The notes under the pieces were generated by a model. That model did not search any database. It saw only the letters and a list, made by a program, of their open reading frames with translations, and was not told where the DNA came from. From Candidatus Kapaibacterium sp. (GTDB taxonomy: Bacteria > Bacteroidota > Ignavibacteria > OLB7), in NCBI GenBank assembly GCA_035549015.1, contig DASZRW010000059.1, positions 265-64,264 of the forward strand: 64,000 bases of DNA. Direction: 5' to 3'. The position numbers and the translations under genes are program-made. Positions 13,636 to 38,747 of the stretch are shown in pieces (the first letter of the stretch is position 1; each line of letters starts with the position of its first letter).

Positions 13636-15324
13636 CTACAGCCCCGCGAGAAACGTCCCCAGATTTGCTCCGGTGTCCAGCTCCAGCTTCTTCCGGATGT
13701 TGTACTTGTGTGCGTGGATGGTGCGGATGGAGGTGTAGAGCAGATTGGCGATATCCTTCGTGGAGAGGTCAATCCGCACGAGCGAGCAGACCCGGATCTC
13801 CGTTGGCGTGAGCGAGGGATAGCGTTCCGCCAGCGTGTGCACGAAGTCGTGATGCAGCGTGCCGAGCTGCTCCTCGAAGCGCTTCCAGTCCTCGTCACCG
13901 TGCTTGGCGCTCTCGATCTTCGAGAGCATTTCGTTGATCGTGGCGCGTTCATGCTGCCCGCCTCCCAACAGCCCGGACACCTGCGCCTTCATCTCATCGA
14001 TCAGCTCCTTCTTCTGCACCAGGTTCAACGCCATCGCCGTGAGCTCGTTCTGCTTCAGCCGCATCTCCGCCTCCAACTGTGCCGTTCGCAGGCGATACAG
14101 CTCGCGCTCGCGTTCGGCCTTCTCCAGGTCGAAGCGAACCTGAATCTCCGCCAGCGCCTTCTGCCGTTCCTCCCCTGCGATCTCCTCGCGCAGGCGTGCA
14201 TGGCGTTTGAAGTGAACGAGCGCGCGGGTGGGGTCGCCAAGCGATTCGTACGTGCCGGCGATCGCGTGGTGCAACTCGTGCTGCAGATGTGGCTGGTCCA
14301 GTTCGTGCGCGATGCGCAGCGCCTGATCGAACACGAAGAGCGCCTCCTCGTGTGCACCGAGACGTGAACGGATGCCGCCGATCGCGAGCAGCGCGCGGGC
14401 CCGGAGCGCATCGTCCGATCCCGAGTCCAGCAATGCGTACGCGCGAACCGCAAACCCGAGCGCGATATCGTCGTGCCGCAGCTCGCTCTGGATGCCGGCA
14501 ATGGCCATCAACGCGCGCGCCACATTCTCCGGATCGCCCAGCGCCTCGTAGATCGCTATCGAGCGCAGCGCGTGCTCCATCGCCGTCTCCAGGTTGCCGG
14601 CCGCATGGTACAGGTCGCCGAGCGCCGTGAGCGCGCGCACCTCCTGATAGCGGTTGCCGCTCTCGCGGAACGCCGCGATGCTTCGGTTGAGACAGTCGAA
14701 CGCGGCATCGCGATTCCCCACGCGGCGATACAGCGTCCCAACCGCAAGGAGTGCCGCACCGGCTCCATCCAGATCGCCCAGCCCCTCGCGGATTGCAAGC
14801 GCTTCGAGTTGCAGATCGAGCGCGAGCGGGAAGTCCCCGATATCGGCGCGCATGGTTCCAAGCGCTGCAAGCACGGCGCTCTCATGCGCGGCAAGGCCGT
14901 GCTGCCGTGCAGCCGCATGTGCCGATCGATACCACCCCAGTGCCTGCTGCGGATCGCCTGCAGCGGCGAACGCGTCGCCAAGCATGGTGGCGGTGGCAAC
15001 CTCCCCGGCATGATCGCCAAGCTCGCCGAACATCTCGTGTGCCTCACCGAGATGCCGTACCCCGTCCGCATGACGGCCGGACGCGATTGCGCATCGCCCC
15101 TGCCAGCGCGTGAGCTCCGCAAGCGCCTCGGCATCGCGAAGCTCCGTTGCCAGCCGTACGCCGTTCCCGGCAAGCCCGAGGGCGTAGTCCGGATCGTGCG
15201 CGGCCGCCTCCGCAATCGAGCCGCGTATCGTCTCCAGGCGCCGCGCGGAATCGCGCGCCATCCGCAGGCGCTGCTCGATTGCACCAACTACCTCGTGTTG
15301 CGATGTGCTGATACCTGCCCTCAT
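13636..15324 (-). CDS. TPR-repeat transcriptional regulator with C-terminal LuxR-type HTH (paralog 1)
   Basis: Multiple TPR-like repeats, a central coiled coil, and a C-terminal LuxR/GerE HTH (LTPTEIRVCSLVRIDLSTKDIANLLYTSIRTIHAHKYNIRKKL). Confidence 0.85.
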   Translation of the reverse strand: MRAGISTSQHEVVGAIEQRLRMARDSARRLETIRGSIAEAAAHDPDYALGLAGNGVRLATELRDAEALAELTRWQGRCAIASGRHADGVRHLGEAHEMFGELGDHAGEVATATMLGDAFAAAGDPQQALGWYRSAHAAARQHGLAAHESAVLAALGTMRADIGDFPLALDLQLEALAIREGLGDLDGAGAALLAVGTLYRRVGNRDAAFDCLNRSIAAFRESGNRYQEVRALTALGDLYHAAGNLETAMEHALRSIAIYEALGDPENVARALMAIAGIQSELRHDDIALGFAVRAYALLDSGSDDALRARALLAIGGIRSRLGAHEEALFVFDQALRIAHELDQPHLQHELHHAIAGTYESLGDPTRALVHFKRHARLREEIAGEERQKALAEIQVRFDLEKAERERELYRLRTAQLEAEMRLKQNELTAMALNLVQKKELIDEMKAQVSGLLGGGQHERATINEMLSKIESAKHGDEDWKRFEEQLGTLHHDFVHTLAERYPSLTPTEIRVCSLVRIDLSTKDIANLLYTSIRTIHAHKYNIRKKLELDTGANLGTFLAGL

Positions 15325-15390: not shown

Positions 15391-15825
15391 ATGAATGCCA
15401 TGGACGAAAGCATCGCAGTTGGAACCACGTCGCCAACCATTATCGTTCCGGTTCCCTCGGGGAGCGAGATATTCGTCTATACCCGCTTCGTGGGCACGGG
15501 TGCGAAGTCCGTGACGATCACGCCCGACACGCAGCCCCCCATGGTTGTCTCGAACTGTCCGGAGAACATCACTTCCAACACGTACTCCTTCCGGAACAAC
15601 TCCTCCTCCTCGATCAATATCACCATCGCGTCCGTTGGCTATCTGGTGCCGTGCGGCCAGGCGCCCATGGCACAGGCGTCCATGACGCCGATCGCCGCTT
15701 CATGGTGCAGCCAGGACGGCAAGGTGGGCAACACCCTCTACGGCATCGGGCCGTCGCCGTACCAGGATACGATCGGGATTACCGTGGTGGTGCAGATCGG
15801 CGTCCCCATCAACGCCGTTCCGTAA
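15391..15825 (+). CDS. Small protein, member of a 5-copy paralogous family (S1)
   Basis: 144 aa, divergent from regulator paralog 1. C-terminal motif IGITVVVQIG is shared with four other small proteins in the window. Confidence 0.55.
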   Translation: MNAMDESIAVGTTSPTIIVPVPSGSEIFVYTRFVGTGAKSVTITPDTQPPMVVSNCPENITSNTYSFRNNSSSSINITIASVGYLVPCGQAPMAQASMTPIAASWCSQDGKVGNTLYGIGPSPYQDTIGITVVVQIGVPINAVP

Positions 15826-15923: not shown

Positions 15924-18866
15924 TCAGGCTGTCCGTACGGTTTCGGCATTGATGCTCCGAAGCCGAAGAACGTCGTTGTGGTTGGCGCCAAGAGTCTGCT
16001 CCATCATCCGGATGGCCTGCTGCATGAGTGACTCGCCGGCCGCCGCATCACCGGCGGCATGCAGTGTCCATCCCAGGCGAAAGGTGCTGTTGATCGTTTC
16101 AACATTGTCGTCTCCAAGCGCGTAGCGTCGTATCTGCAGCGCACGCCGAAAGAGCGTAATCGCCTCCGGCATTTCATCGCGGCCTCGCATGACTCCGGCG
16201 AGATTCGTCACTGCCACTGCCACCATCGGATGATTCGGGCCCAGCGTTCGTTCGTAGATGCCGATCGCCTCGCGATACAGGCGGTCGGCATCCTCCGTGA
16301 TGCCCTGGCTGTGAAGCGCGAACGCCATGTTCGTGATGTTCGATGCCGCCTCCGGATGCTCCGCTCCCAGCGTTGCCCGGTTCAGTTCGAGTGCCTGCGA
16401 GAAGAATGCATGGGCCGCCTGGTGCTCGCCGGTTGCCGTCCGGACCGCGCCGAGCGTGTTGAAGACCATCGCCATGAGCAGCGGTTCCCGCGCAACATGT
16501 GCGTTGCAGAGCGCCAGTGCCTGCTGCAGTTCCTCCTCCGCCTCGGCGAAACGTCCCACGGCATAGAGCAGGGCGCCGAGATCCGCCATGTTGCGCGCCA
16601 CGTCGGGATGATACTCCCCGAGCGAGCGGCGGCGAACCGCGAGGGCGCGCCGCGATGACTCGATCGCCTCGTCGCTGCGGAAGACGTGATACAGGAGGGT
16701 GACAAGCGTATCGAGCGCCCCCGTCATCTCCAGCGTATCGCCCTGCCCATCGCCGGCGCGCATCCGCAGCGAGCGGCGGCAGAGCGCCTCGGCATCGGCA
16801 TAGCGTCCGGCCTCGAAGAGAAATCGTGCGATGGCATCGAGCGTGGCGGGAAGCGCCGACGGATCGGCCGTGCGCTCGTATTCCTTCAGACTCTGTGCGT
16901 ACGCAGGGCCCATCTCCACACGCTCGCCGATCTCCAGCCAGTAGTCGAGAAGATCGTACCCCCCGTCTGCGCCGAGAAGCGTTGTGGCGATCGGAATCGA
17001 TTCGATGCAGGCGGCAAGCTCCTCCCGGCGCCCGGCCTGCAGCCACTGCCACGGCTCCTCGAACGCCCGGCGTGCGGATACCGGTTGCGACCGGAAGAAT
17101 GTTGCAATGCGCACGTGCACATCGCCGGCCGCGTTGCCATTCTCCGCCGCCAGATATCGCGCCGCCACGGCATCGCGCAGATAGTCGTGGTAGAAGGTGA
17201 GAAGATTGTCGCGCTGAATCAGATGATGATCCATCGCCGTGAGCAGGAGATCGAGCCGGCCGGCATCGGCGCCGGTGATCGCGTGCAGCTCGGCGCGGCC
17301 CAGCCCCTGGCGCGACGCCCTGATAAGCGTGGCGACGTCGCGAACAAGCGCCTCGCCGTGCTCCGCTTCCAGACGGCGCAGCACACGGTCGAACAACTCC
17401 GTGAGATTGTGCGCCTCCAGATAGTACTCGATGCGATCGTTCACCTCGGCGCTCGTGCGGGCGCGCCGCATCTCCTCCGCGCCGGTGCGGAGGAAGAGTG
17501 GCGTGGCGCCCGCGCTGCTCTCGGAGAGCCTCGTGAGCTGCGTGCCGGAGATGGTGCCGCCGAACTCCTCGATGTAGCCGCGCAGCACCTCACGCCGTTC
17601 GCGCAGCGTGAGCGGGCGTACATCCAGCTCCGGCCATCCGCGAGCGCGCAGCCGCGCAAGGCTTTCGCCTCCGGTGGTGGAAACGATCAACCGCACCTTC
17701 GGCTGAAGATATTCGGGCAGCCAGCCCAGCGACTGCGACTCCAGGTCCAACTGGTTCAATGCATCGATGGCAAGCACAAGCTCCTCGTTCTGCACGTTGG
17801 CCAGCCAGACCGGAAACGCCTCCTCGATCTCCGCGCTTCGTTCCGGCAACGCCGTCTCCAGCGCGTACCGTTGCCGGATCTCCTCCATCACGCGCCGCAT
17901 GAGCGCATGATGGCTGCCGCCCCCCGTTCCGCAGCCAACGTAATGTTCGATCACGAACGCGTCCGGATGGCGCTCGCGGTAGCGGCTGCACCAGTGTGCG
18001 ATCAGCGCGCTCTTCCCTCCTCCTGAAACCCCGGTGATCACCATGCCCGGATTGCCGCCGGCCTCTCCGCTCCCTTCCCGGTGCGCCTTCCCCTGCTCCT
18101 CCAGATGCCGGTTGAGGCGTGCCACATAGTCATCCACATCCAGATAACTCCGGCGCCGCGTGAGTGCGTAGGCCTGGTGCGCTCGACGCTCCGCTTCGAT
18201 TGTTCCGGTACTCTCCATCGATGAGAGCGATGCCTCGATCACCCCCATGAGATCGTTCTGTATCCACCGCGCAAGCACTTCCGGTTCGGCGGCCCGCTCC
18301 CGTACGGGGAATCCGCTCCTCCTGATGCGTGCCTTCAATGCGGCAAGGCGTTCGGCGCCCGTCCCGCTTCCGGCGTCGAACCCCTCTGCGTCAGCCGCGC
18401 GTTCCGTATTCGCGCCGATCCCCTCCTCATCCTCCACGATGTAGAAGAATGCCCGCGACTCCATGGGCGGATGTCGAAGCGCGCCTTCGATCATCAACAT
18501 CTCGAGCAGCCCCATCCCTTCCTGCAGCGCTCCGTGCAGCCACGGGTGGCGGAGAAGCAGGCCGGTATTCTCCACGTCCGCATGTGTGGGAACCCATCCG
18601 TACGATCTCCCGGCAAGCCCGAGCAGGATGGGCCGTTCCCGCTGCAGCAGATCGAGCGCGAGTGCCAGGCGTCCCCCGTGCGGCATACCGGCCCGCGATG
18701 CCGGGCTGCAGGGATCGATCACCACGAGTTGTGCCTCCCGCTCGCGGCAGATCCGTTGGAGTTCCGGAAATGTCTGCGTGAGAAGATGGTCCGGAAGCGG
18801 ACCGGCTTCATCGCCGGAGCGGGCGAGAACGATCGTGATGGTTGGATGGGCACCGGTTGGTTGCAT
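15924..18866 (-). CDS. STAND NTPase (NB-ARC-like) with C-terminal TPR repeats (paralog 1)
   Basis: Walker A GVSGGGKSAL and Walker B LVLAIDALNQLD. The IVSTTG and GATPLFL (GxPL) motifs are typical of AP-ATPase/NB-ARC. The C-terminal repeats are TPR_12-like. The start is inferred at MQPTGAHP. Confidence 0.85.
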   Translation of the reverse strand: MQPTGAHPTITIVLARSGDEAGPLPDHLLTQTFPELQRICREREAQLVVIDPCSPASRAGMPHGGRLALALDLLQRERPILLGLAGRSYGWVPTHADVENTGLLLRHPWLHGALQEGMGLLEMLMIEGALRHPPMESRAFFYIVEDEEGIGANTERAADAEGFDAGSGTGAERLAALKARIRRSGFPVRERAAEPEVLARWIQNDLMGVIEASLSSMESTGTIEAERRAHQAYALTRRRSYLDVDDYVARLNRHLEEQGKAHREGSGEAGGNPGMVITGVSGGGKSALIAHWCSRYRERHPDAFVIEHYVGCGTGGGSHHALMRRVMEEIRQRYALETALPERSAEIEEAFPVWLANVQNEELVLAIDALNQLDLESQSLGWLPEYLQPKVRLIVSTTGGESLARLRARGWPELDVRPLTLRERREVLRGYIEEFGGTISGTQLTRLSESSAGATPLFLRTGAEEMRRARTSAEVNDRIEYYLEAHNLTELFDRVLRRLEAEHGEALVRDVATLIRASRQGLGRAELHAITGADAGRLDLLLTAMDHHLIQRDNLLTFYHDYLRDAVAARYLAAENGNAAGDVHVRIATFFRSQPVSARRAFEEPWQWLQAGRREELAACIESIPIATTLLGADGGYDLLDYWLEIGERVEMGPAYAQSLKEYERTADPSALPATLDAIARFLFEAGRYADAEALCRRSLRMRAGDGQGDTLEMTGALDTLVTLLYHVFRSDEAIESSRRALAVRRRSLGEYHPDVARNMADLGALLYAVGRFAEAEEELQQALALCNAHVAREPLLMAMVFNTLGAVRTATGEHQAAHAFFSQALELNRATLGAEHPEAASNITNMAFALHSQGITEDADRLYREAIGIYERTLGPNHPMVAVAVTNLAGVMRGRDEMPEAITLFRRALQIRRYALGDDNVETINSTFRLGWTLHAAGDAAAGESLMQQAIRMMEQTLGANHNDVLRLRSINAETVRTA

Positions 18867-19961: not shown

Positions 19962-20177
19962 CTACAGGCATTCCTTGATGCAGGTGAATGCGGCGGGGCC
20001 GGCGCAGAGAAGCCAGCACGCCGGATTCGGGCCGCACAGCACGCAGCCCAGGGCGGCGGCGCCGCATTTCAGGATGCAGCTCAGGTCCAGCATCGGTGCG
20101 ATTTCCTCGCGCCGGTTCTGTGTGATGCGTGACGATCGGTCGATACTGTTGCCGGCAGAGAGCTTCGGAATCTTCAT
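19962..20177 (-). CDS. Cys-rich precursor-like peptide 1 (71 aa)
   Basis: AAGGAG RBS 7-8 nt upstream of the ATG. The N-terminal ~33 aa are hydrophilic (MKIPKLSAGNSIDRSSRITQNRREEIAPMLDLS). The C-terminal 38 aa are hydrophobic with 8 Cys: CILKCGAAALGCVLCGPNPACWLLCAGPAAFTCIKECL. Confidence 0.65.
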   Translation of the reverse strand: MKIPKLSAGNSIDRSSRITQNRREEIAPMLDLSCILKCGAAALGCVLCGPNPACWLLCAGPAAFTCIKECL

Positions 20178-20347
20178 GCGATACTCCTTCGTGGTATGAA
20201 CGTTGATGGTGGGGGTCCGTTCTGCCGCTACGTGATCCGCCCGTTCAACGATCGCCACGCCCCGGCACGAGGCCGGGACGTGGATCGATCATTGCGAAGC
20301 GCACATGGGCGGTAACGTATCGGCGCTTCGAACCATGTCCGCGGTTG

Positions 20348-20581
20348 CTAGCTCAGGCAGCGGGTAATACAGCCGATGGCAGACGGACCCGCGCACGTTG
20401 CCCAGCAGCCCAGATTGGTGCCGCATGGCAGACACTTCAGCACGCCGATTCCGCAACCGAGAAGACATGTGATGTTGATCATTGCAGTGATGCTCTGTGC
20501 CTCACTGCGCGAGGTGGTACCGGCCTGTACACCGCTACCGTTGCGGACGCTGCGGTCCGCGGAAAACCGAGGCAACTTCAT
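20348..20581 (-). CDS. Cys-rich precursor-like peptide 2 (77 aa)
   Basis: AAGGAG RBS. Leader-like MKLPRFSADRSVRNG... N-terminus. C-terminal CLLGCGIGVLKCLPCGTNLGCWATCAGPSAIGCITRCLS has Cys spacing identical to peptide 1. Confidence 0.65.
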   Translation of the reverse strand: MKLPRFSADRSVRNGSGVQAGTTSRSEAQSITAMINITCLLGCGIGVLKCLPCGTNLGCWATCAGPSAIGCITRCLS

Positions 20582-20627
20582 GGCCTACTCCTTGGGTTTG
20601 ATTGAGTGTATGATGAGTGGGGGGGAT

Positions 20628-21641
20628 TTATCCGATGCCGTAGTATCTCTGGAATGGAGCGTTGATGAACGGGAACTGGCCGGTTACATCCACGCTGCAA
20701 TACCACTGCTGCACAAGTCCGGTTTGCAGGCCGGTGAAGGAGAAGATCACGTCGAGCACCTTGTTCTTTCCCTGCACGGCGGAAGGGGCTGTGCGGATGC
20801 CGGTCAGTGAGTACGGCTCCTGTGTCGGGAGCTCCGATGTCGGCTGGCTCTGAGAAGGATATCGGAGGTTGTAGACCTGGGCATATGCCGATATGTATTG
20901 CAGCACGACATAGTTGATGGCGCGCTGCGGGTCCGTGTTGCCGGCATTGATCGCGAACCCGAACACCTGCGCGAAGATCGGCAGGACATTCTGCGGAGTG
21001 CCGTTCGTCAACTCGGTGATGGCACTCAGATAGCTCTGGCTGGAGGCGATGTATACCTCCTTCGCCGTCAGAACGGGAAGCCCGCCGCCGACGCGACCAT
21101 CGTCCGGAAGAGCCGTGCCTTCGGTTCCGCGAACGATGCCCCAGATCAACGAGCCCACGTCCGAAAGCGTGGGATCGTACAGCAACGCCACCAGATTCTG
21201 CAGCTCGTAGTTCGATTGCGGGTGGATCACATATACATCCGTGTTCCCCTGCTGAAACAGCCACGTCATTTCACGAGCGATGTACAGATTGTCCGTCTGT
21301 TTCAGATACCGTGCCACCAACCAGTCGATGTTCCTGTCCTGATCGGACTCGTCCAGTGTTTGAAGGAACTCCTTCTCGAGGCTGAGTGATGGAAACCGAG
21401 CAGCGATGCCGCCTACCGAGAAGACGTTCACCGCCGGAGCTGCGGCCTGCGCGCCGCTGCCGGCCGTAGCGTTCGCTGCGGAGGTGCAGGAGCAGTACGG
21501 TGCGATCTCGGATTGCATCGCGTAGTGTGTGATCGCGGTCATGCCGAGGCCTGCCTGCCACTCGCCTGCAAGGCCGCGCGCCGGTGTGCTGCCTGCAATC
21601 GTGCGAAGACTGCCTCCGGCCGTGAGTTGTGGTAGATTCAT
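20628..21641 (-). CDS. Hypothetical protein, paralog A of an unknown two-member family
   Basis: Shares CxC, LYIARE..W, A[IL]NY[VI][VI]L.Y and the C-terminal W[YF]C.VDVTGQFPF motifs with 22684..23718. The start is set at MNLPQL. The ORF-track N-terminal extension is Arg/Ser low complexity. Confidence 0.6.
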   Translation of the reverse strand: MNLPQLTAGGSLRTIAGSTPARGLAGEWQAGLGMTAITHYAMQSEIAPYCSCTSAANATAGSGAQAAAPAVNVFSVGGIAARFPSLSLEKEFLQTLDESDQDRNIDWLVARYLKQTDNLYIAREMTWLFQQGNTDVYVIHPQSNYELQNLVALLYDPTLSDVGSLIWGIVRGTEGTALPDDGRVGGGLPVLTAKEVYIASSQSYLSAITELTNGTPQNVLPIFAQVFGFAINAGNTDPQRAINYVVLQYISAYAQVYNLRYPSQSQPTSELPTQEPYSLTGIRTAPSAVQGKNKVLDVIFSFTGLQTGLVQQWYCSVDVTGQFPFINAPFQRYYGIG

Positions 21642-21786
21642 GATTCTCTCCTGTATCGAGCGTTGATGTCGAGTTACGTTGTCGCGGAACCTTGCTGGCT
21701 GCGCATCGCGGAAGCGCACGCGAAGGCGCGCCGGCCTCGGGGCCTTTCTCCTGAGCGCCTGCCGACGGGCATGAATGGCCCCAGCC

Positions 21787-22647
21787 CTATGCCTGCTTCT
21801 CGGATGGCACAGCCTGCTGCTGATTTGAATGGCGGTAGCGGCTTGGCGGCACGGATGATGTCTGCTTCGCGATCGCGTTCGCTGTGGGATCGGTGCTGAT
21901 GAAGATCGGCTCCTGCGGAAGCGTGGAGATGTACCACTGGGGTTGTGACTTCTGGGAGCCGTTGCCCAGCCTGCCGTTGCTTGTGCCCGAGTAGTCGTAG
22001 GCGTGGTCGCCATAGCCCTCGTTCGCCCGCCAGTTGTGGCGCAGTCGCGCGACAACCGTTCCCTCGGCCGTTCGGATCGTGAAGTTGCCGGAGAAGTCGA
22101 AGTAGTTCAGGCGGCTGAGATCCTCCTGCCGTATGATGCCCTGCCAGATGCGGACATATCCCAGCGAACCCCTGAAGTAGTTGGTGATGGTTGCGCAACT
22201 GCGGGTCTCCTTCCATGCGCCAAGGAGGGCAGGCCCCACGATGAACGGCTTGGACGTCGCAAGCGGCTTCGTCTCTCCGGGAACCGCGGCATTCACATAG
22301 AGCGTTGCAGCTGCCCCGTCCATCGTGATCGCGACATAGTACCAGGTGCCTGGGGTGAACGTCTCCGTGAACGTGAGCGTCGTTGGGCTGCCTCCATCCA
22401 CCGTCAGCTCGAGGTTGCTGCCGTTGAGCCCGATGCGGAAGCTTCCGGCGCCGCTTTCGCCGTCGTCGGCAAACAGCGACTGCTTTCCTTCGAGACGTTC
22501 GGCATAGAACCAGATCTCCACCGTGATCCTGTCGATCGCTTCGGCTTCCGGAATCTCCACGAGGCTCTTCTCGCCATCATAGCGGAGCACGGAAACTCCC
22601 AGCGGGGCATAGCGCGGAATTGTTATGGACATAGTCATCTCTCCCAT
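21787..22647 (-). CDS. Concanavalin-A-like / LamG-fold domain protein
   Basis: VEIWFYAERLEGKQSLFADDG...FRIGLNGSNLELTVDGG...GTWYYVAITMDG...TLYVNA resembles the LamG/jelly-roll lectin fold. Confidence 0.6.
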   Translation of the reverse strand: MGEMTMSITIPRYAPLGVSVLRYDGEKSLVEIPEAEAIDRITVEIWFYAERLEGKQSLFADDGESGAGSFRIGLNGSNLELTVDGGSPTTLTFTETFTPGTWYYVAITMDGAAATLYVNAAVPGETKPLATSKPFIVGPALLGAWKETRSCATITNYFRGSLGYVRIWQGIIRQEDLSRLNYFDFSGNFTIRTAEGTVVARLRHNWRANEGYGDHAYDYSGTSNGRLGNGSQKSQPQWYISTLPQEPIFISTDPTANAIAKQTSSVPPSRYRHSNQQQAVPSEKQA

Positions 22648-22683
22648 GTATTGAGTTCGTTATGCACGTGATGGTGTTGGCTG

Positions 22684-23718: not shown

Positions 23719-23777
23719 GATGGTTATCCTCTCGGTCTAGGTGTATGTGTTGTTCCGCGCCGTGGGCGCAGGAGTGA

Positions 23778-27357: not shown

Positions 27358-27765
27358 ATGCTGCAATCCGACAATCCAGCCTTCCCCGCTGCTCTGCCTG
27401 TTCCAACGTTCCCCATGGTAGGGACGTCGGACGCCAATCTGATCTGTCTTGTCCATGTCGCGTTTCTGGGGCCTACTGAAAAGGTCGTCACCTTCACTCT
27501 CGTCGGTCGCAGCGCCCCCTGGATCACCGTGAACTCCGGCGATGGTCCGTTCTGGAGCCGCATATTCCAGCCGAAGGACGGGCTGAGCCTGATAGGGGTG
27601 CCCGATGTGGCGAACTGCGCGTGGTGGTCGCCGCTCGGTGCCTGCGCCGGCAGCATATACTCCGCCTTCACCTACGGATATTCGCTCAACACCGGCATCG
27701 ATCAGGATGCCGTGCTGATCACCATTATCGTGCAGCCGGGAATCATCGCTCCCATTCCACTGTAG
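27358..27765 (+). CDS. Small protein, paralogous family member (S2b)
   Basis: 135 aa. C-terminal VLITIIVQPGIIAPIPL motif. Confidence 0.5.
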   Translation: MLQSDNPAFPAALPVPTFPMVGTSDANLICLVHVAFLGPTEKVVTFTLVGRSAPWITVNSGDGPFWSRIFQPKDGLSLIGVPDVANCAWWSPLGACAGSIYSAFTYGYSLNTGIDQDAVLITIIVQPGIIAPIPL

Positions 27766-30700: not shown

Positions 30701-30804
30701 AGCCATGCTCGTTCCGCATCGATATCGCACTGTATGCCGACGATCGCGATCCGGATCAACGGGAACGCATCGTGCGGCGATGGTGCCGAGGGCTCGCAAC
30801 TCAT
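27787..30804 (-). CDS. STAND NTPase (NB-ARC-like) with C-terminal TPR repeats (paralog 2)
   Basis: Walker A GESGAGKSAL, Walker B LVLVVDGLDQLDE, IVSTTD and GGNPLYL motifs, and a TPR_12-like C-terminal array. The start is inferred at MSCEPSAP. Confidence 0.85.
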   Translation of the reverse strand: MSCEPSAPSPHDAFPLIRIAIVGIQCDIDAERAWLAQALLPELSGICRARGGDIATCELAGTDTAGAYGETIFNHPPAAHTGQRIYVLVIVGSNPAVEGPPAADGRDARTDPYRWRSAGTAGSPFLLSMEALAGALRNPALAGRMLFFPYDPAPEHPEAYATAPPPSVSGTQAEKEMSYYDAMPRRRRNVAAAARERILDMIRSSGQTLHHTVHTREQLLDLVRRDLMDLINRLFPAATGSPLDAERRMHRSFARSRTHAYMEIPGYLERLDDFLNNQPGTAAAERDEPERNAGLVVSGESGAGKSALLAYWCERIRSEHPHLFIVQHHVAAASAGNDGATVLRHIMAEIRERLGVDDPLPTDAAGIREAFPLWLGHLQHENLVLVVDGLDQLDEASRDLSWLPEHIPPHVLLIVSTTDTEPLAALHARAWPELRMVQLTQKQRRDLITRYVREFGEARYGDWYARIGAGTAGGNPLYLRTQLERLNATASGADEPALLNRLLAAETLPELFDRVLEQLEGRHGVARMRTVLTLLWAARRGLARQEIAAIGLLDEGETEEVLASLGCHLIGHEGLFRFHHDGFRRAVERRYLVERPGRIPEIRERIADWFASQPIARRHVEEIPWQAMHAGAWRKLHTAIADIRTASMLLADGDPYELLQYWRALENRYGMVETYRTAMQACQLEANPSLDLVAAREAIAGLLLHAGHYAEAEHLCRTALEERGAAHGEDNPTMLPALDSYATLLYHTGEWERAIRVSERALRLREAASGMDAKHRARNLAALGAMYHACGDHAEADIHLLEALCLANDADEAAVAMIVNNLGAMRVARGDFAEAAMYFERALAVNGCLLGEGHLETASNRVNLGFALQQMGNTSAAAVHYRHALACAERILGARHPRTALFLTSFGMMLRDSGELEEGEQLLRRAYVIRRDLFGADALETAGSATRLAGALRMQGRLGEAFEIYSRAIPIHEAHLGATHPDIISLHAICNEIQAQLAYRMEFAL

Positions 30805-31003: not shown

Positions 31004-31037
31004 GTTGTGGTGCAGTTTCGCTGCGACAATGAGAATA

Positions 31038-31584: not shown

Positions 31585-32217
31585 CTACGATTGAACGAAC
31601 GTTCCGGAAGCGCTGTTGAACTTGAGAGAGACGCTTGTGACCGTGCCACCGAACGTCACCTTGGTATAACTGGTATTGATCTGAGAGATCATCGTCTCGC
31701 TTGCGAAGTTTGCCTGCAGCCACACATAGACAACCGTGAACGGTGTGAGCGTGTCGTAGGCCTGGCTCAATACCATGTCGGCGTTCAAGGCATTGAATCC
31801 GCCCGGAACGCCGTTGATGATGGCCGGCTGCGTAAGTCCGAACGTGAGCGCCCGGTACTTGCTTGCCGGCATGGCGTTATCGATGCGATAGCTGGTGAGC
31901 GGAACGTCGGATGTGGCGACGCCCTGGGAAAAGATTGCGTTGGGCAGGAAGGTGTACGTTGATCCGCCTTCGGCCGGCGAGAATGTGCTGAGCTTGGAGA
32001 TCGTGGCGCCATGCTCCACGGTGCTCGTTGCCGCGTAGATGCCGTACTGCTCCGTCCACGATACGGTGTTGTTCTCGAACGGATCGAAGCTCTGCCAGAT
32101 CACGTTGGGCGCGGCGCCTCCCACCGGCTTCGCGAGCGTGATGTTCATGCCGGCAGCGCTGATAACGGCCAGTTCGGTCGGGTCGATCTGCAGTGAAAGT
32201 TCATAGTTGTTAGCCAT
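31585..32217 (-). CDS. Hypothetical protein (210 aa)
   Basis: ORF with GC3 bias. The start is set at MANNYELSLQIDP. No recognisable motifs. Confidence 0.45.
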   Translation of the reverse strand: MANNYELSLQIDPTELAVISAAGMNITLAKPVGGAAPNVIWQSFDPFENNTVSWTEQYGIYAATSTVEHGATISKLSTFSPAEGGSTYTFLPNAIFSQGVATSDVPLTSYRIDNAMPASKYRALTFGLTQPAIINGVPGGFNALNADMVLSQAYDTLTPFTVVYVWLQANFASETMISQINTSYTKVTFGGTVTSVSLKFNSASGTFVQS

Positions 32218-32828
32218 GTCGCTTGTTCCTGAGTTGATTGATACGTGAAGAGTGATTGCTCCGGCCGATCGTGAGCGCCTGCATGCGCCGCTGTGCACAC
32301 GGCTGCATCAAGCCTCGGAGTGCGCGGCCACGCGAGATGTTGAGGCGCGGCTGCATGTGTCACGATCGGCCTTGCGGTTGTGTTGTCCGTCATGACGTTC
32401 ATGCAAAGGTCGCTGCACCGTGCGGCCGCAGATCTACTGAGGTATTACCGAGTTTATTCGCCCCACGCCGGGCCCTTGCTCTGCATGCGCTGCAGGGCGA
32501 ACGCGCGCAATCGGGCGCAGTCTGCGGGAAGTTCAAGGGGGTGCGGCCACGCAGCCCGTTTCGTGCAGGGGATTGAAGTCGGCGTCGACATCCGGCTGGC
32601 GCATCTTCGGTACTGAACTTCTACCGAGGCGGCGCCGTTCATGAGCCGACGGCGCGAAGGAATTGCGCGGCTGCGATGCGGAACGCACGGCCCGGCAGGC
32701 GGAAAGCCGCGGCCGTGTATGGCAGGCAGGGAGCAGTGATGCGGCGGAGATCGACTGCCGGGCAGGCGGCCGTCCACCCGGGAATGAGAGGGGAGAGAGT
32801 GATGATGATTCGAGCACCCGGCCGTGGA

Positions 32829-34511
32829 CTAGAGCGAGGCGAGGAAGGTAGTGAGGCTCACCTTCGAGTCCAGGCGAAGTTTGCGGCGGATGTTGTACTT
32901 GTGCGAGTCCACCGTGCGAACGGAGGTGCAGAGAATTGCGGCGACATCCTTGGTGGAGAGATTGATGCGGGCAAGCGAGCAGATCTTCAACTCCGTCGGC
33001 GTCAGCAGCGGGCAGCGCTCCGAAAGGAGCCGGATGAAGTCCTGATGGAGATGATCGAGCTGCTGCTCGAATATCTTCCAGTCCGCATCGGCATGCTTCG
33101 TGCTGGTGATCTCGCTGATCATCCGTTCAACCGTATCGGTGCCGGAGCGGCGGCTCTCGCCGTGCAGCTTCTCGAGTTGATACTGCATGTCGGCGAGCAG
33201 TTCCTTCTTCTGCAGAAGGTTTACCGCCATGGCCGTGAGCTCGTTCTGCTTCAGTCGCATCTCGGCGCGGAGCCCTTCAACCTGCAGGCGATACATTTCC
33301 CGCTCGCGCTCCGCCTTCTCCAGATCGAACCGAACCTGCAGTTCGGCGATTGCATGCTGCTTCTCGCGACCGGCCAGTTCGTTCCGGAGTTCCGCGAAAT
33401 GGCGATAGTGTTCGAATGCCCATTCAATCTGTCCAAGGTGGTGATAGGCATGCGAGATGGCGCCGTGCACCTCGTACTGAAGACGCCGATCGTCGATCGC
33501 GCGCGCCAGTGCCAGCGCCTGATCCAGCACGAAGACGGCGTCGTCCATCGCGCCGAGTGCGGTGTGCAGGCGCCCCATGTCCAGCAGAAGCTCCACGCGC
33601 CGCGTGTCGTCGGGCGACTGGCCCAGCAGCGAGTAGGCGCGCATTGTGAGGCCCAGCGCGGCATCGTACTCATGCCGTGCCGCATGAACGCGTCCCAGCA
33701 TCGCCAGCACGGTCCCCACATTCTGCAGGTCCCCCAGCGTCTCGTAGATCGTGAGCGCCCGAAGTCCGTGTTCGGCTGCGCTCTCGCCGTTGCCGGTGGC
33801 GAGATCTATTTCGGCGAGATGCCGCAGTGCGTCCACTTCACGGAGACGATTCCCGGATTCCCGGAACACCTCGGCGCTTCGGCGCAGATATTCGCGGGCG
33901 GTCGTGTGGTCGTTCGTGCGTCCGTACAGGATGCCGACCGCGGCCAGGGCATGCCCCACACCGTCGTGTACATCGCTCGATTCATACAGCCGGAGAGCGT
34001 CCAGATAATATCCGAGCGCCTTCGGGTAGTCGCCGATGCTCATTCTCAGATCGCCGATGGAGAGTGCCGCCGCGGCCTGGAGGTCCGATGCCCCGGCATG
34101 CATTGCCCGTTCGAGTGCCGTATGCAGCCAGTCGATCGCATGCGGGGCCATGCCGGCGGCGAGGTGCGCCCGGCCTGCCTGCAGTGCGCAGACGGCGGCT
34201 TCCGAGTCGTGGCCAAGATCCACATTGATGCAGTACGCCTCCACAAGGTCGGCAGCCCCCGCATCGTGATTTCCGAGAACAACGTATGCCTCGCCGCGAC
34301 GGCGCAGAATGCGTGCAGCTGCCGCCATGTTGCGCGACGAGGCGGCGAGGCGATACCCCTCGCTCGCCAGGCCGACACTGTACGGCGCGGCGCCGGCCGC
34401 GGCCTCGTCGAGAAATTCCAGAATCAGATCGAGCTTCCGATTCCGATCCTGCGCCATCAACAGCCGGCGTTCGATCGCCTCGATAATTCGTTCCTGGTCT
34501 GCTGTCCCCAT
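32829..34511 (-). CDS. TPR-repeat transcriptional regulator with C-terminal LuxR-type HTH (paralog 3)
   Basis: Same architecture. The C-terminal 200 aa are nearly identical to paralog 1. The start is inferred at MGTADQERIIEAIERR (561 aa), which matches the paralog lengths. The ORF-track 5' extension overlaps the opposite-strand genes. Confidence 0.85.
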   Translation of the reverse strand: MGTADQERIIEAIERRLLMAQDRNRKLDLILEFLDEAAAGAAPYSVGLASEGYRLAASSRNMAAAARILRRRGEAYVVLGNHDAGAADLVEAYCINVDLGHDSEAAVCALQAGRAHLAAGMAPHAIDWLHTALERAMHAGASDLQAAAALSIGDLRMSIGDYPKALGYYLDALRLYESSDVHDGVGHALAAVGILYGRTNDHTTAREYLRRSAEVFRESGNRLREVDALRHLAEIDLATGNGESAAEHGLRALTIYETLGDLQNVGTVLAMLGRVHAARHEYDAALGLTMRAYSLLGQSPDDTRRVELLLDMGRLHTALGAMDDAVFVLDQALALARAIDDRRLQYEVHGAISHAYHHLGQIEWAFEHYRHFAELRNELAGREKQHAIAELQVRFDLEKAEREREMYRLQVEGLRAEMRLKQNELTAMAVNLLQKKELLADMQYQLEKLHGESRRSGTDTVERMISEITSTKHADADWKIFEQQLDHLHQDFIRLLSERCPLLTPTELKICSLARINLSTKDVAAILCTSVRTVDSHKYNIRRKLRLDSKVSLTTFLASL

Positions 34512-34727
34512 GATCCGTTGCCATAACGATGAAAGAATACATCCGGCACGAACGCGCGGTGCGGAGTGCGGCGGTGTTCGTCTGCGCCGCCGGTCAACTC
34601 GGTAATTCCTCAGTAGTGCGGAAGCCCGTCCATCTCGATACCATTGCACCAACCAACACCGGGCCGTGCAACGCAGCGGCCCGCCAACATCAGCCGGCAT
34701 GTTTGCCGCAACCAGGAGGATCTCATC

Positions 34728-35150
34728 ATGACAGGTGCAGGTATCGTCACCATCGAGGAACTCGAAGCGATCACATCCATTCCGATCACCGAATTCCTTC
34801 CGGACTCCTACTGCCAGATCGTAGTCGAGTCCACGTTGAACGAGACCGTCGTGGTTTCGATCGTTGATGCCAAACTCATCGCAGTCGAAGGCGACAAGCT
34901 GGCCGGCGGGGAATCGTATACAACGCGCATCTCCGGCGAGGATATGTCGCTCCAGCCCTACACGCTGAACATCCTCTCGCGAACCGCGATGATTCATACC
35001 TGCAAGACCGGCTACTACACACTCCCGGACGACGAGACGAATTATCAGATCGAACTGTGCCGCATGGTGCCGTTTCCCGACACGACAACGGACGGGCAGA
35101 TCAACATCACGATCATCCTCCAGCCCACGGACATCCTCACGGAGCCGTAG
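34728..35150 (+). CDS. Small protein, paralogous family member (S3a)
   Basis: 140 aa. AGGAGG RBS before the ATG. C-terminal INITIILQPTDIL motif. Confidence 0.5.
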   Translation: MTGAGIVTIEELEAITSIPITEFLPDSYCQIVVESTLNETVVVSIVDAKLIAVEGDKLAGGESYTTRISGEDMSLQPYTLNILSRTAMIHTCKTGYYTLPDDETNYQIELCRMVPFPDTTTDGQINITIILQPTDILTEP

Positions 35151-35229: not shown

Positions 35230-35658
35230 ATGGCGGAACACTGGCATGCTCGTCATGGAGGACCCATTCGTGTACCGGTATTTCCCGTAATCGATCCCGG
35301 CGTCGGACTCTATGTGGTTATTCATATCGTGTTCAACGGGTCCGGGCTGAAGAGGGTGACATTCACACGCCCGGGAGAAACGATGCCGTGGCTTGTGGCG
35401 GAATTGCCGGGGACCGGTTTCTGGAATCATGTATACCGTCATCAGGATGGCATCAGCCGCCTTGCGATATCCGGAATGGACTCGATGCCGGATTGGACGT
35501 TCCTCGGCCAGAAGAAAATGACGAGCGACGGCGTCGTCTCCGCGTACACGTGCCAGTATCTCCTTGCGGAGAGCCCGCATGAGTCCGTGCTCGTCACCAT
35601 TCTTCAACTGCCCGGATCGCCGGGCGGAGCTGCTGAAGCGCCGCGCCGTGTAGTGTGA
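35230..35658 (+). CDS. Small protein, paralogous family member (S3b)
   Basis: 142 aa. C-terminal VLVTILQLPGSPG motif. Confidence 0.5.
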   Translation: MAEHWHARHGGPIRVPVFPVIDPGVGLYVVIHIVFNGSGLKRVTFTRPGETMPWLVAELPGTGFWNHVYRHQDGISRLAISGMDSMPDWTFLGQKKMTSDGVVSAYTCQYLLAESPHESVLVTILQLPGSPGGAAEAPRRVV

Positions 35659-35795: not shown

Positions 35796-38747
35796 TCACT
35801 GCTGCTCGGCGCGCTCTTCGATTTCATCCATGATTCTGAATATCTGGATTATCTCCGGATGGTCGCCTCCAAGCACCGGCTCCTGCACCACGATCGCCTC
35901 CCTGTACAGCGCCAGCGCCTCGCCGTACCGTTCCTGCCGGCAGAGCGCACCGGCCAGGCGTGTCATGCTGGTTGCCGTTTCGATCGCATCCGGACCGAAC
36001 GTCTCGCGGCGAATATCTGCGGCGCGCATCAGCAGATCCGTTGCCTCGTCAAGCTGGCTGGTCTCCCGCAACAACATGCCGAGGTTGGTGAGGAAGAGCG
36101 CAACGTGGGGATGCTGCGAGCCAAGTACGCGTTCGGCGATGCCGAGTGCCTCGCGATACTGCGCAGTTGCGGCGGCAGTGTTGCCGGTGCGCTGCAGCGC
36201 GAAGCCAATGTTCACCAGATTCGACGCCACCTCCAGATGTTCGGCGCCCAGCAGCCGCCGGTTCAACTGCAATGCATGTTCGAAGAAGCGGGCCGCCTCC
36301 TCGAAGTGGCCAAGGGTTGCCCGAAGCGCGCCGAGATTGTTGGCGGCGAGGGCCAGGATTGTGTCGTCCGTATCGTTGGCAATGGTGAGGGCGCGCATCA
36401 GATAATCCTCGGCGTCGTCGTAGGCATGCATGGCATGGCACACGGCTCCGAGATCGGCGAGGTTCTTCGCGATCTCCGGGCCGGTGATGCCGTCTCCCGT
36501 CTCGCGAACGGCCAGTGCGCGGCGCGATATCTCGATCGCCTCGGTGTAGCGTCCGGTGTGGTACAGCAATGCTGCGAGCGAGTCCAGCGTCCCCAGGGAG
36601 TCGCGCCAATCGGGCCGGCCGGCCGTGTGGTGCACGGAGAGTGCGCTGCGGCAGAATCGTTCGGCGGCCTCGTATTCTCCGGCCTGCACGAAGAACTCCG
36701 CCATCGTACGAAGCGCGGCAACCAGCGCGCGTGGCGAGGTGTCCGCCTGCCGGTATCGCTCCATGGCAGTGAAGTATGCCTGCGCCATCTCACCACGATT
36801 CCCCACAACCAGCCAGTAGTGGAGGAGCTGGTAGGGATCGTTATCCTTCAGCAATTCCATCGCAAGCGGGATATCCGTGATCGCGGCGCGCAGCTCCTCC
36901 ACCTCACCGATGGCGGCGAGCTGCCACGGCAACTCCTCTGCGCGGCGGGGCGTCTCCTGCTCGGAGCCGAAGTAGCCGGCGATGCGCCAGCGCACGCGTT
37001 TCAACTCATCGCGACGCCCGAACAGATATCGCCGGTCCACGGCCCGGCGCATGTGGTCGTGATAGTAGGTCAGCAGCCCCTCGCGCTCCATGAGATGATA
37101 GTTCAGTGCCTGCACGATCGCGGCAAGCTCCTCGCGTTCGATGCCGCTGGCTCCGGCCAGTTCCGTTTCCGAGAGTCCGCGCCGCGATGCAAGAATCAAC
37201 GTCAGCACCGTGCGGAGATTCTCCCGGCCGAAACGTTCCTCCAGCCGCACAAGCACGCGTTCGAACAACTCGGGGAGATCGCGTGCCGTGAGGTAGTAGT
37301 CGATGTGCTCGTTCAGTTCCGCGGCCGATCCGCCGCGGCCGCTCTCCTCCAACTGTGTTCGCAGATGCAGCGGGTTTCCTCCCGTGCTCGGCAGGCTGAT
37401 GCGATCCAGTTGCGCAAGGTTGTGGCGCCTGCCGAACTCCGCAGCGTACCGGTGCGCGAGATCGCGGCGCTGCTCGAGCGTGAGCGGTTGAACGTGCAAC
37501 TCCTCCCACTCGCGCTCGCGCAATACTTCCAGCGCGTGCGACTCCGTGGTGGAGACGATCACCGTTACACGGGGCGGTATGTAGAGCGGCAGCCATGCCA
37601 GATCCTGCGACTCCGGTTGAAGCTGGTCCAGCCCGTCGATGATCAGCACCAGATTCTCGTTCTGCACGTGGCCAAGCCAGAGCGGCAACGCCTTCTCGAT
37701 CTCCGCGCCGTCTGCAGGCACGGCATCGGCAAGTGCGTAGCGTTCGCGCAGCTCCATCATCACATGGCGCAGCAGTGGAACATGGTCGCTTCCGGACGAT
37801 GTGATGGCAACGTGGTGGAGAACGATGAACGCCTCACGACGTTCGTGTTGCAGCCTGCCGGTCCAGTATGCCAGGAGGGCGCTCTTGCCGCAGCCGGAGG
37901 GGCCCGCAACAACCAGCCCCGTTCTGCCGGAACGTTGCTCTGCGGATCTCCGGCGGTTCTCCGTCCTGCCGAACGCGAATTGCTCCAGCCGTTCCAGATA
38001 TTCCGGAATCTCCACATATGCCCGCGTGCGCGAGAGGGCGAACGCCTCATGCGCCCGTCGTTCCAGCGCAAGCGGCGTGAGCGTTCTGCAGGCTGGGAGG
38101 AGCCTGTCGATGACGGCTTCGAGATCAGCGCGGATATGGGCAACGAGTTCGTCGCGGCTCTCGATCCCGTCGCGCAGCGGATGCCGGCTGGAACGAATCA
38201 GCATCGCCGCTTCTTCGGCGGCGCGCAGCGCATGTTCCGCCGCGCGGGTCTCCGGCTCGATCCCCCCATGCCGTGCCGGCATGTAGAAGAACAGCCTGCC
38301 GACGGTTGCGGTATTGGAAAGGACGTACGGCAGCAGCGACGCGGGCACAACGCCCGCACCGCCGCCGGATGCGCGTTGCCACGGAAAGCGCCTGCTCGTC
38401 TCACCGTTCGATCCGGTTTGCAACCCGGCACTGTCCGTCCCGACGATTGCAATCACATATGCATGCCTGGCCGCCACCTCATCGAGCTGGCGCTGCAGCA
38501 ATGCCTCGGACTGTGCCGCCTCCGTTCCCGCTCCGGTGTCGGCGGCGAATTTCATCTCGGCGAAGTCGCCCCCGCGTGCCCGGCAGATATCCCGCAGTTC
38601 ATCGAAGAGATGCATCGAGAGATGCGCACGCTCCGCGGTCACATCCCCAAGGACTCCGATTACGGCAACACGCAGACGATTCGATTGATCGAGCGGGGAT
38701 GGCTCCAATGGTATACCACTCAACTCCAGCTCCTTACGGCTTGGCAT
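35796..38747 (-). CDS. STAND NTPase (NB-ARC-like) with C-terminal TPR repeats (paralog 3)
   Basis: Walker A GPSGCGKSAL, Walker B LVLIIDGLDQLQPE, IVSTTE and GGNPLHL motifs, and a TPR_12-like C-terminus. Confidence 0.85.
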   Translation of the reverse strand: MPSRKELELSGIPLEPSPLDQSNRLRVAVIGVLGDVTAERAHLSMHLFDELRDICRARGGDFAEMKFAADTGAGTEAAQSEALLQRQLDEVAARHAYVIAIVGTDSAGLQTGSNGETSRRFPWQRASGGGAGVVPASLLPYVLSNTATVGRLFFYMPARHGGIEPETRAAEHALRAAEEAAMLIRSSRHPLRDGIESRDELVAHIRADLEAVIDRLLPACRTLTPLALERRAHEAFALSRTRAYVEIPEYLERLEQFAFGRTENRRRSAEQRSGRTGLVVAGPSGCGKSALLAYWTGRLQHERREAFIVLHHVAITSSGSDHVPLLRHVMMELRERYALADAVPADGAEIEKALPLWLGHVQNENLVLIIDGLDQLQPESQDLAWLPLYIPPRVTVIVSTTESHALEVLREREWEELHVQPLTLEQRRDLAHRYAAEFGRRHNLAQLDRISLPSTGGNPLHLRTQLEESGRGGSAAELNEHIDYYLTARDLPELFERVLVRLEERFGRENLRTVLTLILASRRGLSETELAGASGIEREELAAIVQALNYHLMEREGLLTYYHDHMRRAVDRRYLFGRRDELKRVRWRIAGYFGSEQETPRRAEELPWQLAAIGEVEELRAAITDIPLAMELLKDNDPYQLLHYWLVVGNRGEMAQAYFTAMERYRQADTSPRALVAALRTMAEFFVQAGEYEAAERFCRSALSVHHTAGRPDWRDSLGTLDSLAALLYHTGRYTEAIEISRRALAVRETGDGITGPEIAKNLADLGAVCHAMHAYDDAEDYLMRALTIANDTDDTILALAANNLGALRATLGHFEEAARFFEHALQLNRRLLGAEHLEVASNLVNIGFALQRTGNTAAATAQYREALGIAERVLGSQHPHVALFLTNLGMLLRETSQLDEATDLLMRAADIRRETFGPDAIETATSMTRLAGALCRQERYGEALALYREAIVVQEPVLGGDHPEIIQIFRIMDEIEERAEQQ

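Follow-up and report, generated by a model that had tools for sequence, protein, structure and literature searches.

How bacteria use the nucleoside triphosphatases (NTPases) of the STAND class is a question that has largely been answered in terms of immunity: those resembling the NOD-like receptors (NLRs) are now read almost wholly as anti-phage sensors with suicide effectors, and their NPHP3/NWD/TEP1 branch, which is shared with humans, has no understood bacterial role. A 64,000-nucleotide stretch of contig DASZRW010000059.1 from Candidatus Kapaibacterium sp. (assembly GCA_035549015.1), hereafter the window, raises the question anew. Within it three large STAND proteins (STAND1, STAND2, and STAND3) are each accompanied by a LuxR-type protein with tetratricopeptide repeats (TPRs; Lux1, Lux2, and Lux3) and by one or two small genes (sm), which together form modules 1–3 (Table 1). 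This triad recurs, with its partners diverging in step, well outside the window genome, and a direct DNA repeat accompanies the LuxR genes. Each module could well be a three-component sensor-to-transcription cassette, a tentative reading that stops just short of probable.

The three modules share a single gene order, in which the STAND gene (reverse strand) is convergent with the small gene or genes (forward strand), and the LuxR gene (reverse strand) is divergent from them. Gene reality was judged from intact open reading frames (ORFs) and coding-type GC content at third codon positions, against a window GC content of ~63%. By these measures all nine genes named in a first-pass annotation, made from the sequence by itself, are intact at the coordinates given there, and its account of three STANDs of ~1,000 amino acids (aa) and three TPR-LuxR partners of ~560 aa is borne out by Pfam as well. 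Its inventory of one or two small genes per module also stands, save for a second gene of module 2 that it had not resolved: sm2a, recognized in a 676-bp "intergenic" stretch through its C-terminal ISITIIVQPG motif, brings the small genes to five. The STAND paralogs are 38–44% identical in pairwise comparisons over almost their full length, and the TPR-LuxR paralogs 42–47%. The annotation had further read this arrangement as three rounds of duplication. The gene order is indeed identical, but the copies are not the product of recent tandem duplication, since all three are as distant from one another as from copies in other genomes and the closest relative of the window genome lacks module 2; the modules thus reflect old paralogy or the gain and loss of a block.

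The association extends to other lineages whichever of its components is used as the starting point. A STAND-seeded scan of species-representative genomes returned 51 loci, among which homologs of the LuxR partner (31–51% identity) adjoin the STAND in L006, L007, L008, L046, L015, L043, and the orthologues in the closest relative, JST22; the cassette loci found from this start are L005–L008, L046, L016, and L012. The 0.8–1.4-kb gaps between STAND and LuxR genes encode opposite-strand members of the small family, two of them in L008, and in L016 and L012 a small gene is visible before the contig ends. Searches by tblastn with the small proteins missed these copies, which were recovered by ORF inspection, by motif search, and later with a hidden Markov model (HMM). 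When all 51 loci (777 kb) were scanned with HMMs, small-family and LuxR-partner genes appeared only in the linked loci, with none in the ~40 others. Starting from the small proteins instead, four homologs from unrelated assemblies (P0049, P0052, P0053, and P0059) each have a divergent TPR-GerE gene on one side and a convergent NACHT-TPR gene on the other; the cassette loci obtained in this way are L056, L059, L060, and L061, and in L056 the place of the small gene is taken by four genes, of which at least two belong to the family. Starting from LuxR, the two closest metagenomic homologs (L062, 51%; L065, 46%) sit in complete triads, and a 34% homolog (L064) does not. Wherever a small-family gene has sufficient flanking sequence, both partners are there.

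The triad is therefore present in about ten distinct lineages besides the window genome, at 30–51% identity, all carriers being uncultured metagenome-assembled genomes (MAGs). Flanking genes vary by lineage and include those for SMC, pseudouridine synthase, pyruvate kinase, and Nuo subunits. In a neighbor-joining tree of the NACHT core, the only tree method used, the window STANDs, their JST22 orthologues, L006, L007, L008, and L012 form one clade with 100% bootstrap support, in which STAND2 and STAND3 are sisters (99%). The identities of STAND and LuxR pairs co-vary (Spearman 0.59, p = 2e-6), which argues that the pairs have been inherited and duplicated as units. The first-pass annotation had proposed from synteny that the three gene types work together, and had named their failure to co-occur outside this genome as a refutation; the triad's presence in some ten lineages, amid different flanks and with co-diverging partners, strengthens that proposal. 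No relatives of the cassette were found on viral contigs. A 564-aa neighbor of an unlinked STAND (L003) was considered as a LuxR partner and rejected.

By their domain composition, the STANDs belong to the NPHP3/NWD1 branch of NACHT proteins and not to the NB-ARC type, the label first given to them: NB-ARC (PF00931) has no match at E ≤ 0.01 in any of the three. NACHT exceeds its Pfam cut-off of 26.7 bits in STAND2 (27.7) and STAND3 (30.3); STAND1, at 20.3 bits, falls under it, yet is 38–40% identical to the other two over its full length. TPR_NPHP3 (cut-off 100 bits) scores 130.3 in STAND1 and 141.3 in STAND3, with STAND2 under the cut-off at 91.8, and Pfam also gives NPHP3_N, HTH_NWD1, nSTAND1, AAA_16, and TPR_10/12. 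The translations of all three retain intact Walker A (GVSGGGKS, GESGAGKS, GPSGCGKS) and Walker B motifs (LVLAIDAL, within LVLAIDALNQ, in STAND1; LVLVVDGL; LVLIIDGL).

The N terminus tells of a different ancestry of output. DUF4062 has been reported as a TIR-like NADase that has a catalytic glutamate and acts in two anti-phage systems, Swarozyc and Evangelion, as well as in human TEP1; full-length human NPHP3, NWD1, and NWD2 showed no NADase activity in vitro (bioRxiv 10.64898/2026.05.01.722283; bioRxiv 10.64898/2026.06.25.731849). Remoter full-length homologs of the window STANDs bear this domain (PF13271) at their N termini, and PF13271 finds no match in the first 250–299 aa of the window STANDs even at E ≤ 10. 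An HMM built from six canonical homolog N termini (DUF4062–NACHT) gives 107–110 bits for STAND1, 40–44 for STAND3, and 18–23 for STAND2. Unlinked STANDs score 160–312 bits in 27 of 27 cases, have the catalytic Glu in 26 of the 27, and nearly all keep the SSTF, ER, and DLRWG motifs; LuxR-linked STANDs score 18–107 bits or lack the domain, apart from L007, L015, and L056/L016.

The catalytic position was referred to E1008 of TEP1 and E97 of KpSwz. The solved TEP1 domain (PDB 11gz_A, 220 aa) can be aligned with the canonical bacterial homologs, and its construct limits (886–1113) place E1008 at the second Glu of SVTEMEV, equivalent to the bacterial TE[LM]E[IF] motif; the Glu of CLxE[IV]D, an earlier candidate, was dropped upon this mapping. 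STAND1 has lost the SSTF/ER strand and has Leu in place of the catalytic Glu; STAND3 retains D..ER, has Ser at the catalytic position, and has lost DLRWG; STAND2 has a Glu in the catalytic column of what is a weak alignment, and SSTF, DLRWG, and RYGW are gone. The N-terminal aromatic motif (SSTF; compare F11 of Eva01) and the DLRWG loop are absent from all three and present in 26–27 of the 27 unlinked homologs. As for the full-length human proteins, NADase activity of the window STANDs is doubtful. Across the linked set the domain has decayed in varied ways (the three window copies, L006, L046/L059/L060, and L062), is missing altogether in L008 and L043, and is intact in L007, L015, and L056/L016, and this diversity of lesions suggests repeated, independent decay that postdates the association of STAND with LuxR.

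If the STANDs have lost an enzymatic output, the LuxR partners may supply another. Each consists of a TPR_12 array, a coiled-coil segment recognized by eye, and a C-terminal GerE helix-turn-helix (HTH), with TPR_12 above its Pfam cut-off and GerE above 23.5 bits in all three Lux proteins (Table 1), the architecture of a one-component regulator. Alignment by eye of the LuxR–small intergenic regions yielded a direct repeat whose two heptamers are spaced at 11 bp, a putative operator of the form 7-N4-7 with consensus MTMSGTA-N4-HTMVGTA (search pattern MTMSGTANNNNHTMVGTA). The window holds four exact matches, compared with 0.21 expected at up to one mismatch, and none of 100 shuffles reaches four. 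The repeat also occupies the equivalent LuxR–small intergenic position in L006, L007, L008, L046, L056, L059, L060, and L062. Among 60 loci the pattern is restricted to those that contain LuxR, and in 27 further loci it occurs three times, in L062 and L063, each copy being beside a full-length LuxR homolog and where expected. Variants of the recognition helix pair with variants of the half-site: RT[VI]HAHKY with TAGGTA (L007, L008, and L062), RTVETHRL with TACGTA (two lineages, L056 and the L046 group), and RTVDSHKY with TC[G/A]GTA (module 3). That LuxR acts by way of these tandem heptamers to control the small genes, and cargo downstream, has a fairly strong case in such patterns of co-occurrence, and the different helix and operator variants carried by the paralogous modules would make of them three insulated, parallel input–output channels. 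No operator was detected upstream of any STAND gene, in the window or in the fetched loci, and scans for sigma-70 promoters and terminators gave results below chance. The Lux1–sm1 intergenic region (15325–15399), just 75 bp long, has no 7-N4-7 repeat; it does contain a GAATGGAATGG direct repeat that is conserved in JST22.

The small proteins that face these putative operators have no match in Pfam, NCBIfam, or PADLOC and no signal peptide by eye. They are marked by a motif toward the N terminus (HH-AIVxVxFxGxxxKxV) and another toward the C terminus (IGITIIVQxG). When 1.84 billion representatives were searched exhaustively with the family profile, 36 clusters were returned, of which ~25 are genuine small proteins; long profile matches considered as small-family fusions in a Rosetta-stone search were rejected as Ig/Big_7 and WD40 repeat artefacts, and a metagenome scan with the family alignment gave no confirmed match. 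The first-pass annotation had assigned the small proteins to one family, which holds at the sequence level for four of the five: a family HMM built without sm2a gives sm2a 59 bits and sm3a only 10 bits, and a model of sm3a from its own two-sequence alignment shares its two best fold hits with sm1. The AlphaFold2 model of sm1, built from a 17-sequence alignment, has nine strands (predicted local distance difference test score, pLDDT, 69; predicted template modeling score, pTM, 0.66), and the predicted models show the nine-stranded beta-sandwich of PA-IIL. The PA-IIL sequence family itself has no Pfam match in these proteins, hhalign of the family profile gives 0.1% probability, and the family HMM scores 1.1 bits on PA-IIL. 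The acidic two-Ca2+ loop of PA-IIL (E95, D99, D101, N103, and D104) is not conserved, being represented by a short loop with one conserved acidic residue in a comparison made from alignment and secondary structure without residue-level superposition, and the chains run past the last strand, beyond the position of the Ca-binding C-terminal Gly of PA-IIL. The null profile comparison and the unconserved loop argue for a relationship at the level of fold, outside the PA-IIL sequence family. We are moderately confident, from the predicted models, that the small proteins share the LecB/PA-IIL fold; they differ from the PA-IIL/LecB fucose lectins (and thrombocorticin) in sequence and in lacking the conserved Ca2+ loop. 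One homolog (P0056, 281 aa) is a tandem two-domain small protein with HH-IV...F.G..K and ITI[IV].Q motifs in each half.

In the cassette that we favor, whose steps beyond conservation we infer throughout, the TPR-LuxR protein would bind the two heptamers of the direct repeat, one helical turn apart, at the promoter that the LuxR and small genes share divergently and at that of the gene or operon that follows LuxR downstream. Its output would be one to four cytoplasmically made LecB-fold proteins together with lineage-specific cargo, which in the window would comprise a 210-aa beta-rich protein (module 3) and an operon encoding an S8 protease, PatG-domain proteins, and a Cys-rich peptide (module 2). 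The NPHP3-like NACHT-TPR STAND would be the cognate upstream switch, its TPR array sensing a cue and its NACHT domain oligomerizing with ATP; the oligomer would act on TPR-LuxR by recruitment, clustering, or release so as to set tandem HTHs on tandem heptamers. STAND and LuxR would thereby constitute a regulator of the MalT/LAL/AfsR type divided between two polypeptides. The STAND ancestor would have borne an active TIR-like NADase output domain (DUF4062), and with output routed through LuxR that domain would have come under relaxed constraint and been repeatedly decayed or lost, including in all three window copies. That the output of a NACHT receptor was in this way rewired from a TIR-like NADase to transcription, through a co-evolving LuxR that drives lectin-fold proteins and cargo, is possible, although we lean against it. 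Somewhat doubtful, likewise, is the view that evolutionary intermediates of such a transition are extant, with the NADase intact (L007 and L056), decaying (the three window copies), or deleted (L008 and L043).

Several points weigh against the cassette and its rewired output. The link from STAND to LuxR is one that we infer solely from the conserved adjacency of the two genes and from their co-divergence. Part of the operator pattern comes from the very intergenic regions in which it was counted, so that its out-of-sample support is partial, and no operator was detected in module 1, although Lux1 bears the HAHKY helix; a TAGGTA-type operator predicted from that helix was searched for in module 1 and not found. 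Some linked STANDs (L007 and L056/L016) retain a fully canonical NADase domain, which implies that the enzyme is not universally dispensable within the cassette. Confidence in the small-protein models is moderate (pLDDT 67–69), and a LecB-fold protein without a signal peptide is left unexplained as an "output" by the model. Finally, sm3a is just 62% identical to its JST22 orthologue, with its neighbors at 86–97%, a pattern that is also typical of conflict systems.

This last point leads to the foremost alternative, that the modules are three-gene, NLR-type anti-phage systems, in which the NACHT-TPR protein recognizes a phage protein, oligomerizes, and kills or arrests the cell through a still-active TIR-like domain or through LecB-fold effectors, LuxR keeping these toxic effectors off until needed. 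The NACHT-TPR architecture with DUF4062 ancestry is what such a system might be built from, Swarozyc and Evangelion being DUF4062 proteins with experimentally established anti-phage NADase activity; the expansion of paralogs, the one to four small genes, and the fast evolution of sm3a resemble an arms race; and the catalytic motifs of L007 and L056 are intact. Yet those motifs are lost in most cassette STANDs, all three window copies included, and the genomic setting is that of housekeeping. The window neighbors encode NuoG/H/I, malate dehydrogenase, OmpA, a TonB receptor, and IspD, and genes for pyruvate kinase, SMC, and asparaginase complete a like picture across the window and the other loci; canonical unlinked relatives stand in conserved housekeeping synteny beside Asparaginase_2, in two genomes. 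On the cassette components PADLOC matched only its generic "TPR" model (PDLC01169), and on ten neighbors only generic PLD and subtilase models, without a defense island; the window has no tRNA, no integrase, and no Rfam match, and viral contigs hold no relatives. A published census places the NPHP3/TEP1 clades among the non-immune STANDs (PMC12803255), and the putative operator would also govern unrelated cargo, including a peptide operon. We consider the anti-phage reading unlikely. The first-pass annotation had left two functions side by side, a signal-sensing regulatory switch and a defense module of the Avs/bNACHT type; the former is now better supported, by the operator, the NADase decay in linked STANDs, and the housekeeping context, and the latter finds neither a model match nor an island or viral context.

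Quite improbable is a second alternative, by which LuxR and the small genes form a self-contained regulator–target pair and the STAND is an independent neighbor kept adjacent by descent in a narrow lineage: STAND genes do lack upstream operators, are convergent with the small genes and not co-transcribed with them, and have close relatives without partners, and L015 and L043 are rearranged or partial, but the adjacency persists at 30–50% protein identity amid different flanks in ~10 lineages, small-family loci with sufficient flanking sequence always have both partners, three duplications or transfers in the window genome involved the module as a whole, pair distances co-vary, and N-domain decay is confined to linked STANDs.

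Set against described systems, the proposed sensor-to-transcription cassette combines familiar parts in an unfamiliar way. With the NPHP3/NWD1/NWD2/TEP1 type the window STANDs share the order of DUF4062-derived N-domain, NACHT, winged helix, and TPR_NPHP3 with TPR_10/12; they differ in an N-domain that Pfam DUF4062 does not detect, in lost catalytic motifs, and in being locked into a cassette with LuxR and LecB-fold proteins, which is reported for no member of that type. bNACHT and Avs have in common with them a STAND NTPase that carries a repeat sensor at its C terminus and an effector-type domain at its N terminus, and Swarozyc and Evangelion share the DUF4062 ancestry and have neither NACHT nor TPR domains; these known systems consist of a single gene or have enzymatic effectors, none with a dedicated LuxR partner and operator, and the window STANDs match no PADLOC model of a known defense protein and lie outside any defense-island context. 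The logic is closest to that of MalT, LAL, and AfsR, where a STAND ATPase and a TPR-like sensor are coupled to DNA-binding output on tandem direct repeats; the sites of SARP regulators are heptamers at 11-bp periodicity. In the window, unlike in MalT and LAL, GerE is confined to the 560-aa partner and the NTPase to the 1,000-aa protein, the ATPase is of the NACHT/NPHP3 clade and not of the MalT or NB-ARC/AfsR clade, and the MalT-type TPR model (PF17874, cut-off 45 bits) scores 29.7–42.4 bits, below its cut-off. AfsR is described in a recent preprint as an NLR-type transcription regulator (bioRxiv 10.64898/2026.09.02.748808), and the likeness extends to module 2, which appears to control an operon resembling those of secondary metabolism. 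Each component can be placed in a known superfamily (the NACHT/NPHP3 branch, LuxR/GerE, and the PA-IIL fold), and it is the set of partners, accompanied by a defined operator, that is unprecedented; the annotation's remark that no described system matches is upheld by defense-model libraries and the searchable literature, in which none was found.

Comparison with the closest relative, MAG SZAS-92/JST22 (loci L001/L004), gives an impression of tempo. JST22 holds modules 1 and 3 only. Module 2 and its S8/PatG operon form a block of ~11.6 kb (window ~19.9–31.5 kb) that is absent there, with DUF1353 and pyruvate kinase genes in its place. Identity between the two genomes is 96–100% for housekeeping proteins, 91–95% for LuxR (Lux1 95%, Lux3 90.5%), 86–90% for STAND and for sm1 and sm3b (the latter 86%), and 62% for sm3a. 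The 210-aa protein, which has no Pfam or PADLOC match, is 97% identical in JST22, above any cassette gene, and both of its upstream operators are conserved; these lie 215 and 391 bp from the gene, which points either to a leader of some length or to a small ORF missing from the annotation.

Among the candidate cargo, the genes at 19962–24743 resemble a cyanobactin-like operon for a ribosomally synthesized and post-translationally modified peptide (RiPP) with its domains split into separate genes, preceded by an operator of the module 2 type. The Cys-rich peptide has a leader (MKIPKLSAGNSI) similar to the N terminus of the second protein with PatG domains (MNLPQLTAGGSL). On the other side of Lux1, and likewise in JST22, an ADP-ribosylglycohydrolase gene (12581–13516, forward strand; Pfam 226 bits) is immediately adjacent, a suggestive neighbor for the descendant of an ADP-ribose-making NADase, and one not seen at other triad loci. 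An AAA_16 ATPase of 1,117 aa farther along (43712–47065, reverse strand), whose C terminus by eye resembles a BTAD/winged-helix activator and which is 89% conserved in JST22, was considered as a relative of the three STANDs and rejected as unrelated.

Other loci have peculiarities of their own. On a second contig of JST22 (L043, 10001–15320), a STAND without an N-domain overlaps a 531-aa TPR partner that is weakly LuxR-like at its C terminus and is followed by a separate NarL-type response regulator, with no small gene and no operator. A 265-aa protein without a Pfam match lies just upstream of the STAND in L016 (5556–6353), L046 (7927–8724), L056 (12561–13358), and L059 (6694–7491); in the first three a larger protein follows beyond it, with GH2 and Yip1 domains in L046, and a protein of ~90 aa downstream of the LuxR gene is common to L046 and L056. 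Kapaibacteriota fall within the phylum Bacteroidota (NCBI taxonomy), and three carrier MAGs (L006, L007, and L016) are labeled "uncultured Alphaproteobacteria"; the DinB and lipoprotein genes that lie upstream of the L007 STAND (3829–5175) are shared with the window (38746–39881), so that these labels may be wrong.

Table 1. Modules, putative operators, and probable cargo, in window coordinates (PWM, position weight matrix score).
Feature	Coordinates	Strand	Description
Lux1	13636..15324	-	Module 1; 562 aa, TPR + coiled coil + LuxR/GerE HTH; TPR_12 105.6 bits, GerE 32.7 bits
sm1	15391..15825	+	Module 1; small LecB-fold protein (predicted); divergent from Lux1, convergent with STAND1
STAND1	15924..18866	-	Module 1; degenerate DUF4062-like N-domain + NACHT NTPase + TPR_NPHP3/TPR_10/12 array
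Probable module 2 cargo operon	19962..24743	-	Pfam; putative operator ~80 bp upstream of first gene
Cys-rich peptide ORF	19962-20258	-	73-98 aa; core ...CILKCGAAALGCVLCGPNPACWLLCAGPAAFTCIKECL
PatG_D/PatG_C protein, second	20628-21635	-	Pfam
LamG protein	21787-22647	-	Pfam
PatG_D/PatG_C protein, first	22684-23718	-	Pfam
S8 subtilase/protease	23778-24743	-	Pfam 108 bits
Operator-like repeat CTACGTA-CGAA-TTCAGTA	24823..24840	-	Downstream of Lux2, ~80 bp upstream of S8 protease operon; PWM 22.4
Lux2	24960..26681	-	Module 2; 573 aa TPR-LuxR; Pfam TPR_12, GerE 36.6 bits
sm2a	26807..27268	+	Module 2, second small gene; 153 aa, LecB-fold family (predicted)
sm2b	27358..27765	+	Module 2; 135 aa; BLASTP against sm3b E = 4e-16; family HMM 63 bits
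STAND2	27787..30804	-	Module 2; most degenerate N-domain + NACHT + TPR; start in public annotation 30831
210-aa beta-rich protein	31585..32220	-	Downstream of Lux3; two putative operators upstream; probable LuxR target
Putative operator CTCGGTA-ATAC-CTCAGTA	32435..32452	-	Upstream of 210-aa gene; PWM 23.6
Putative operator CTCGGTA-GAAG-TTCAGTA	32611..32628	-	Upstream of 210-aa gene; PWM 20.9
Lux3	32829..34511	-	Module 3; 560 aa TPR-LuxR; Pfam TPR_12, GerE 35.1 bits
Putative operator CTCGGTA-ATTC-CTCAGTA	34598..34615	+	Lux3-sm3a divergent intergenic region
sm3a	34728..35150	+	Module 3; highly diverged, fast-evolving small protein, same predicted fold
sm3b	35230..35658	+	Module 3; 142 aa, small-family member; family HMM 69.5 bits
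STAND3	35796..38747	-	Module 3; degenerate N-domain + NACHT + TPR; NACHT 30.3 bits, TPR_NPHP3 141 bits

For the biology of these receptors, the proposed sensor-to-transcription cassette offers a testable alternative wiring, running from a NACHT-TPR sensor to LuxR, to an operator, and to lectin-fold proteins, with the NADase at several stages of loss. A very rare new family of LecB-fold proteins (~25 clusters) is defined along the way, and a cyanobactin-like RiPP operon of Kapaibacteria gains a candidate regulator specific to its pathway. Were the link from STAND to LuxR true, an immune-type effector module would prove replaceable by transcriptional output, and the pair would be a two-protein analogue of MalT and AfsR. 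Were the output indeed rewired from NADase to transcription, prokaryotes would have, in this cassette, a counterpart to transcriptional NLRs like CIITA and NLRC5.

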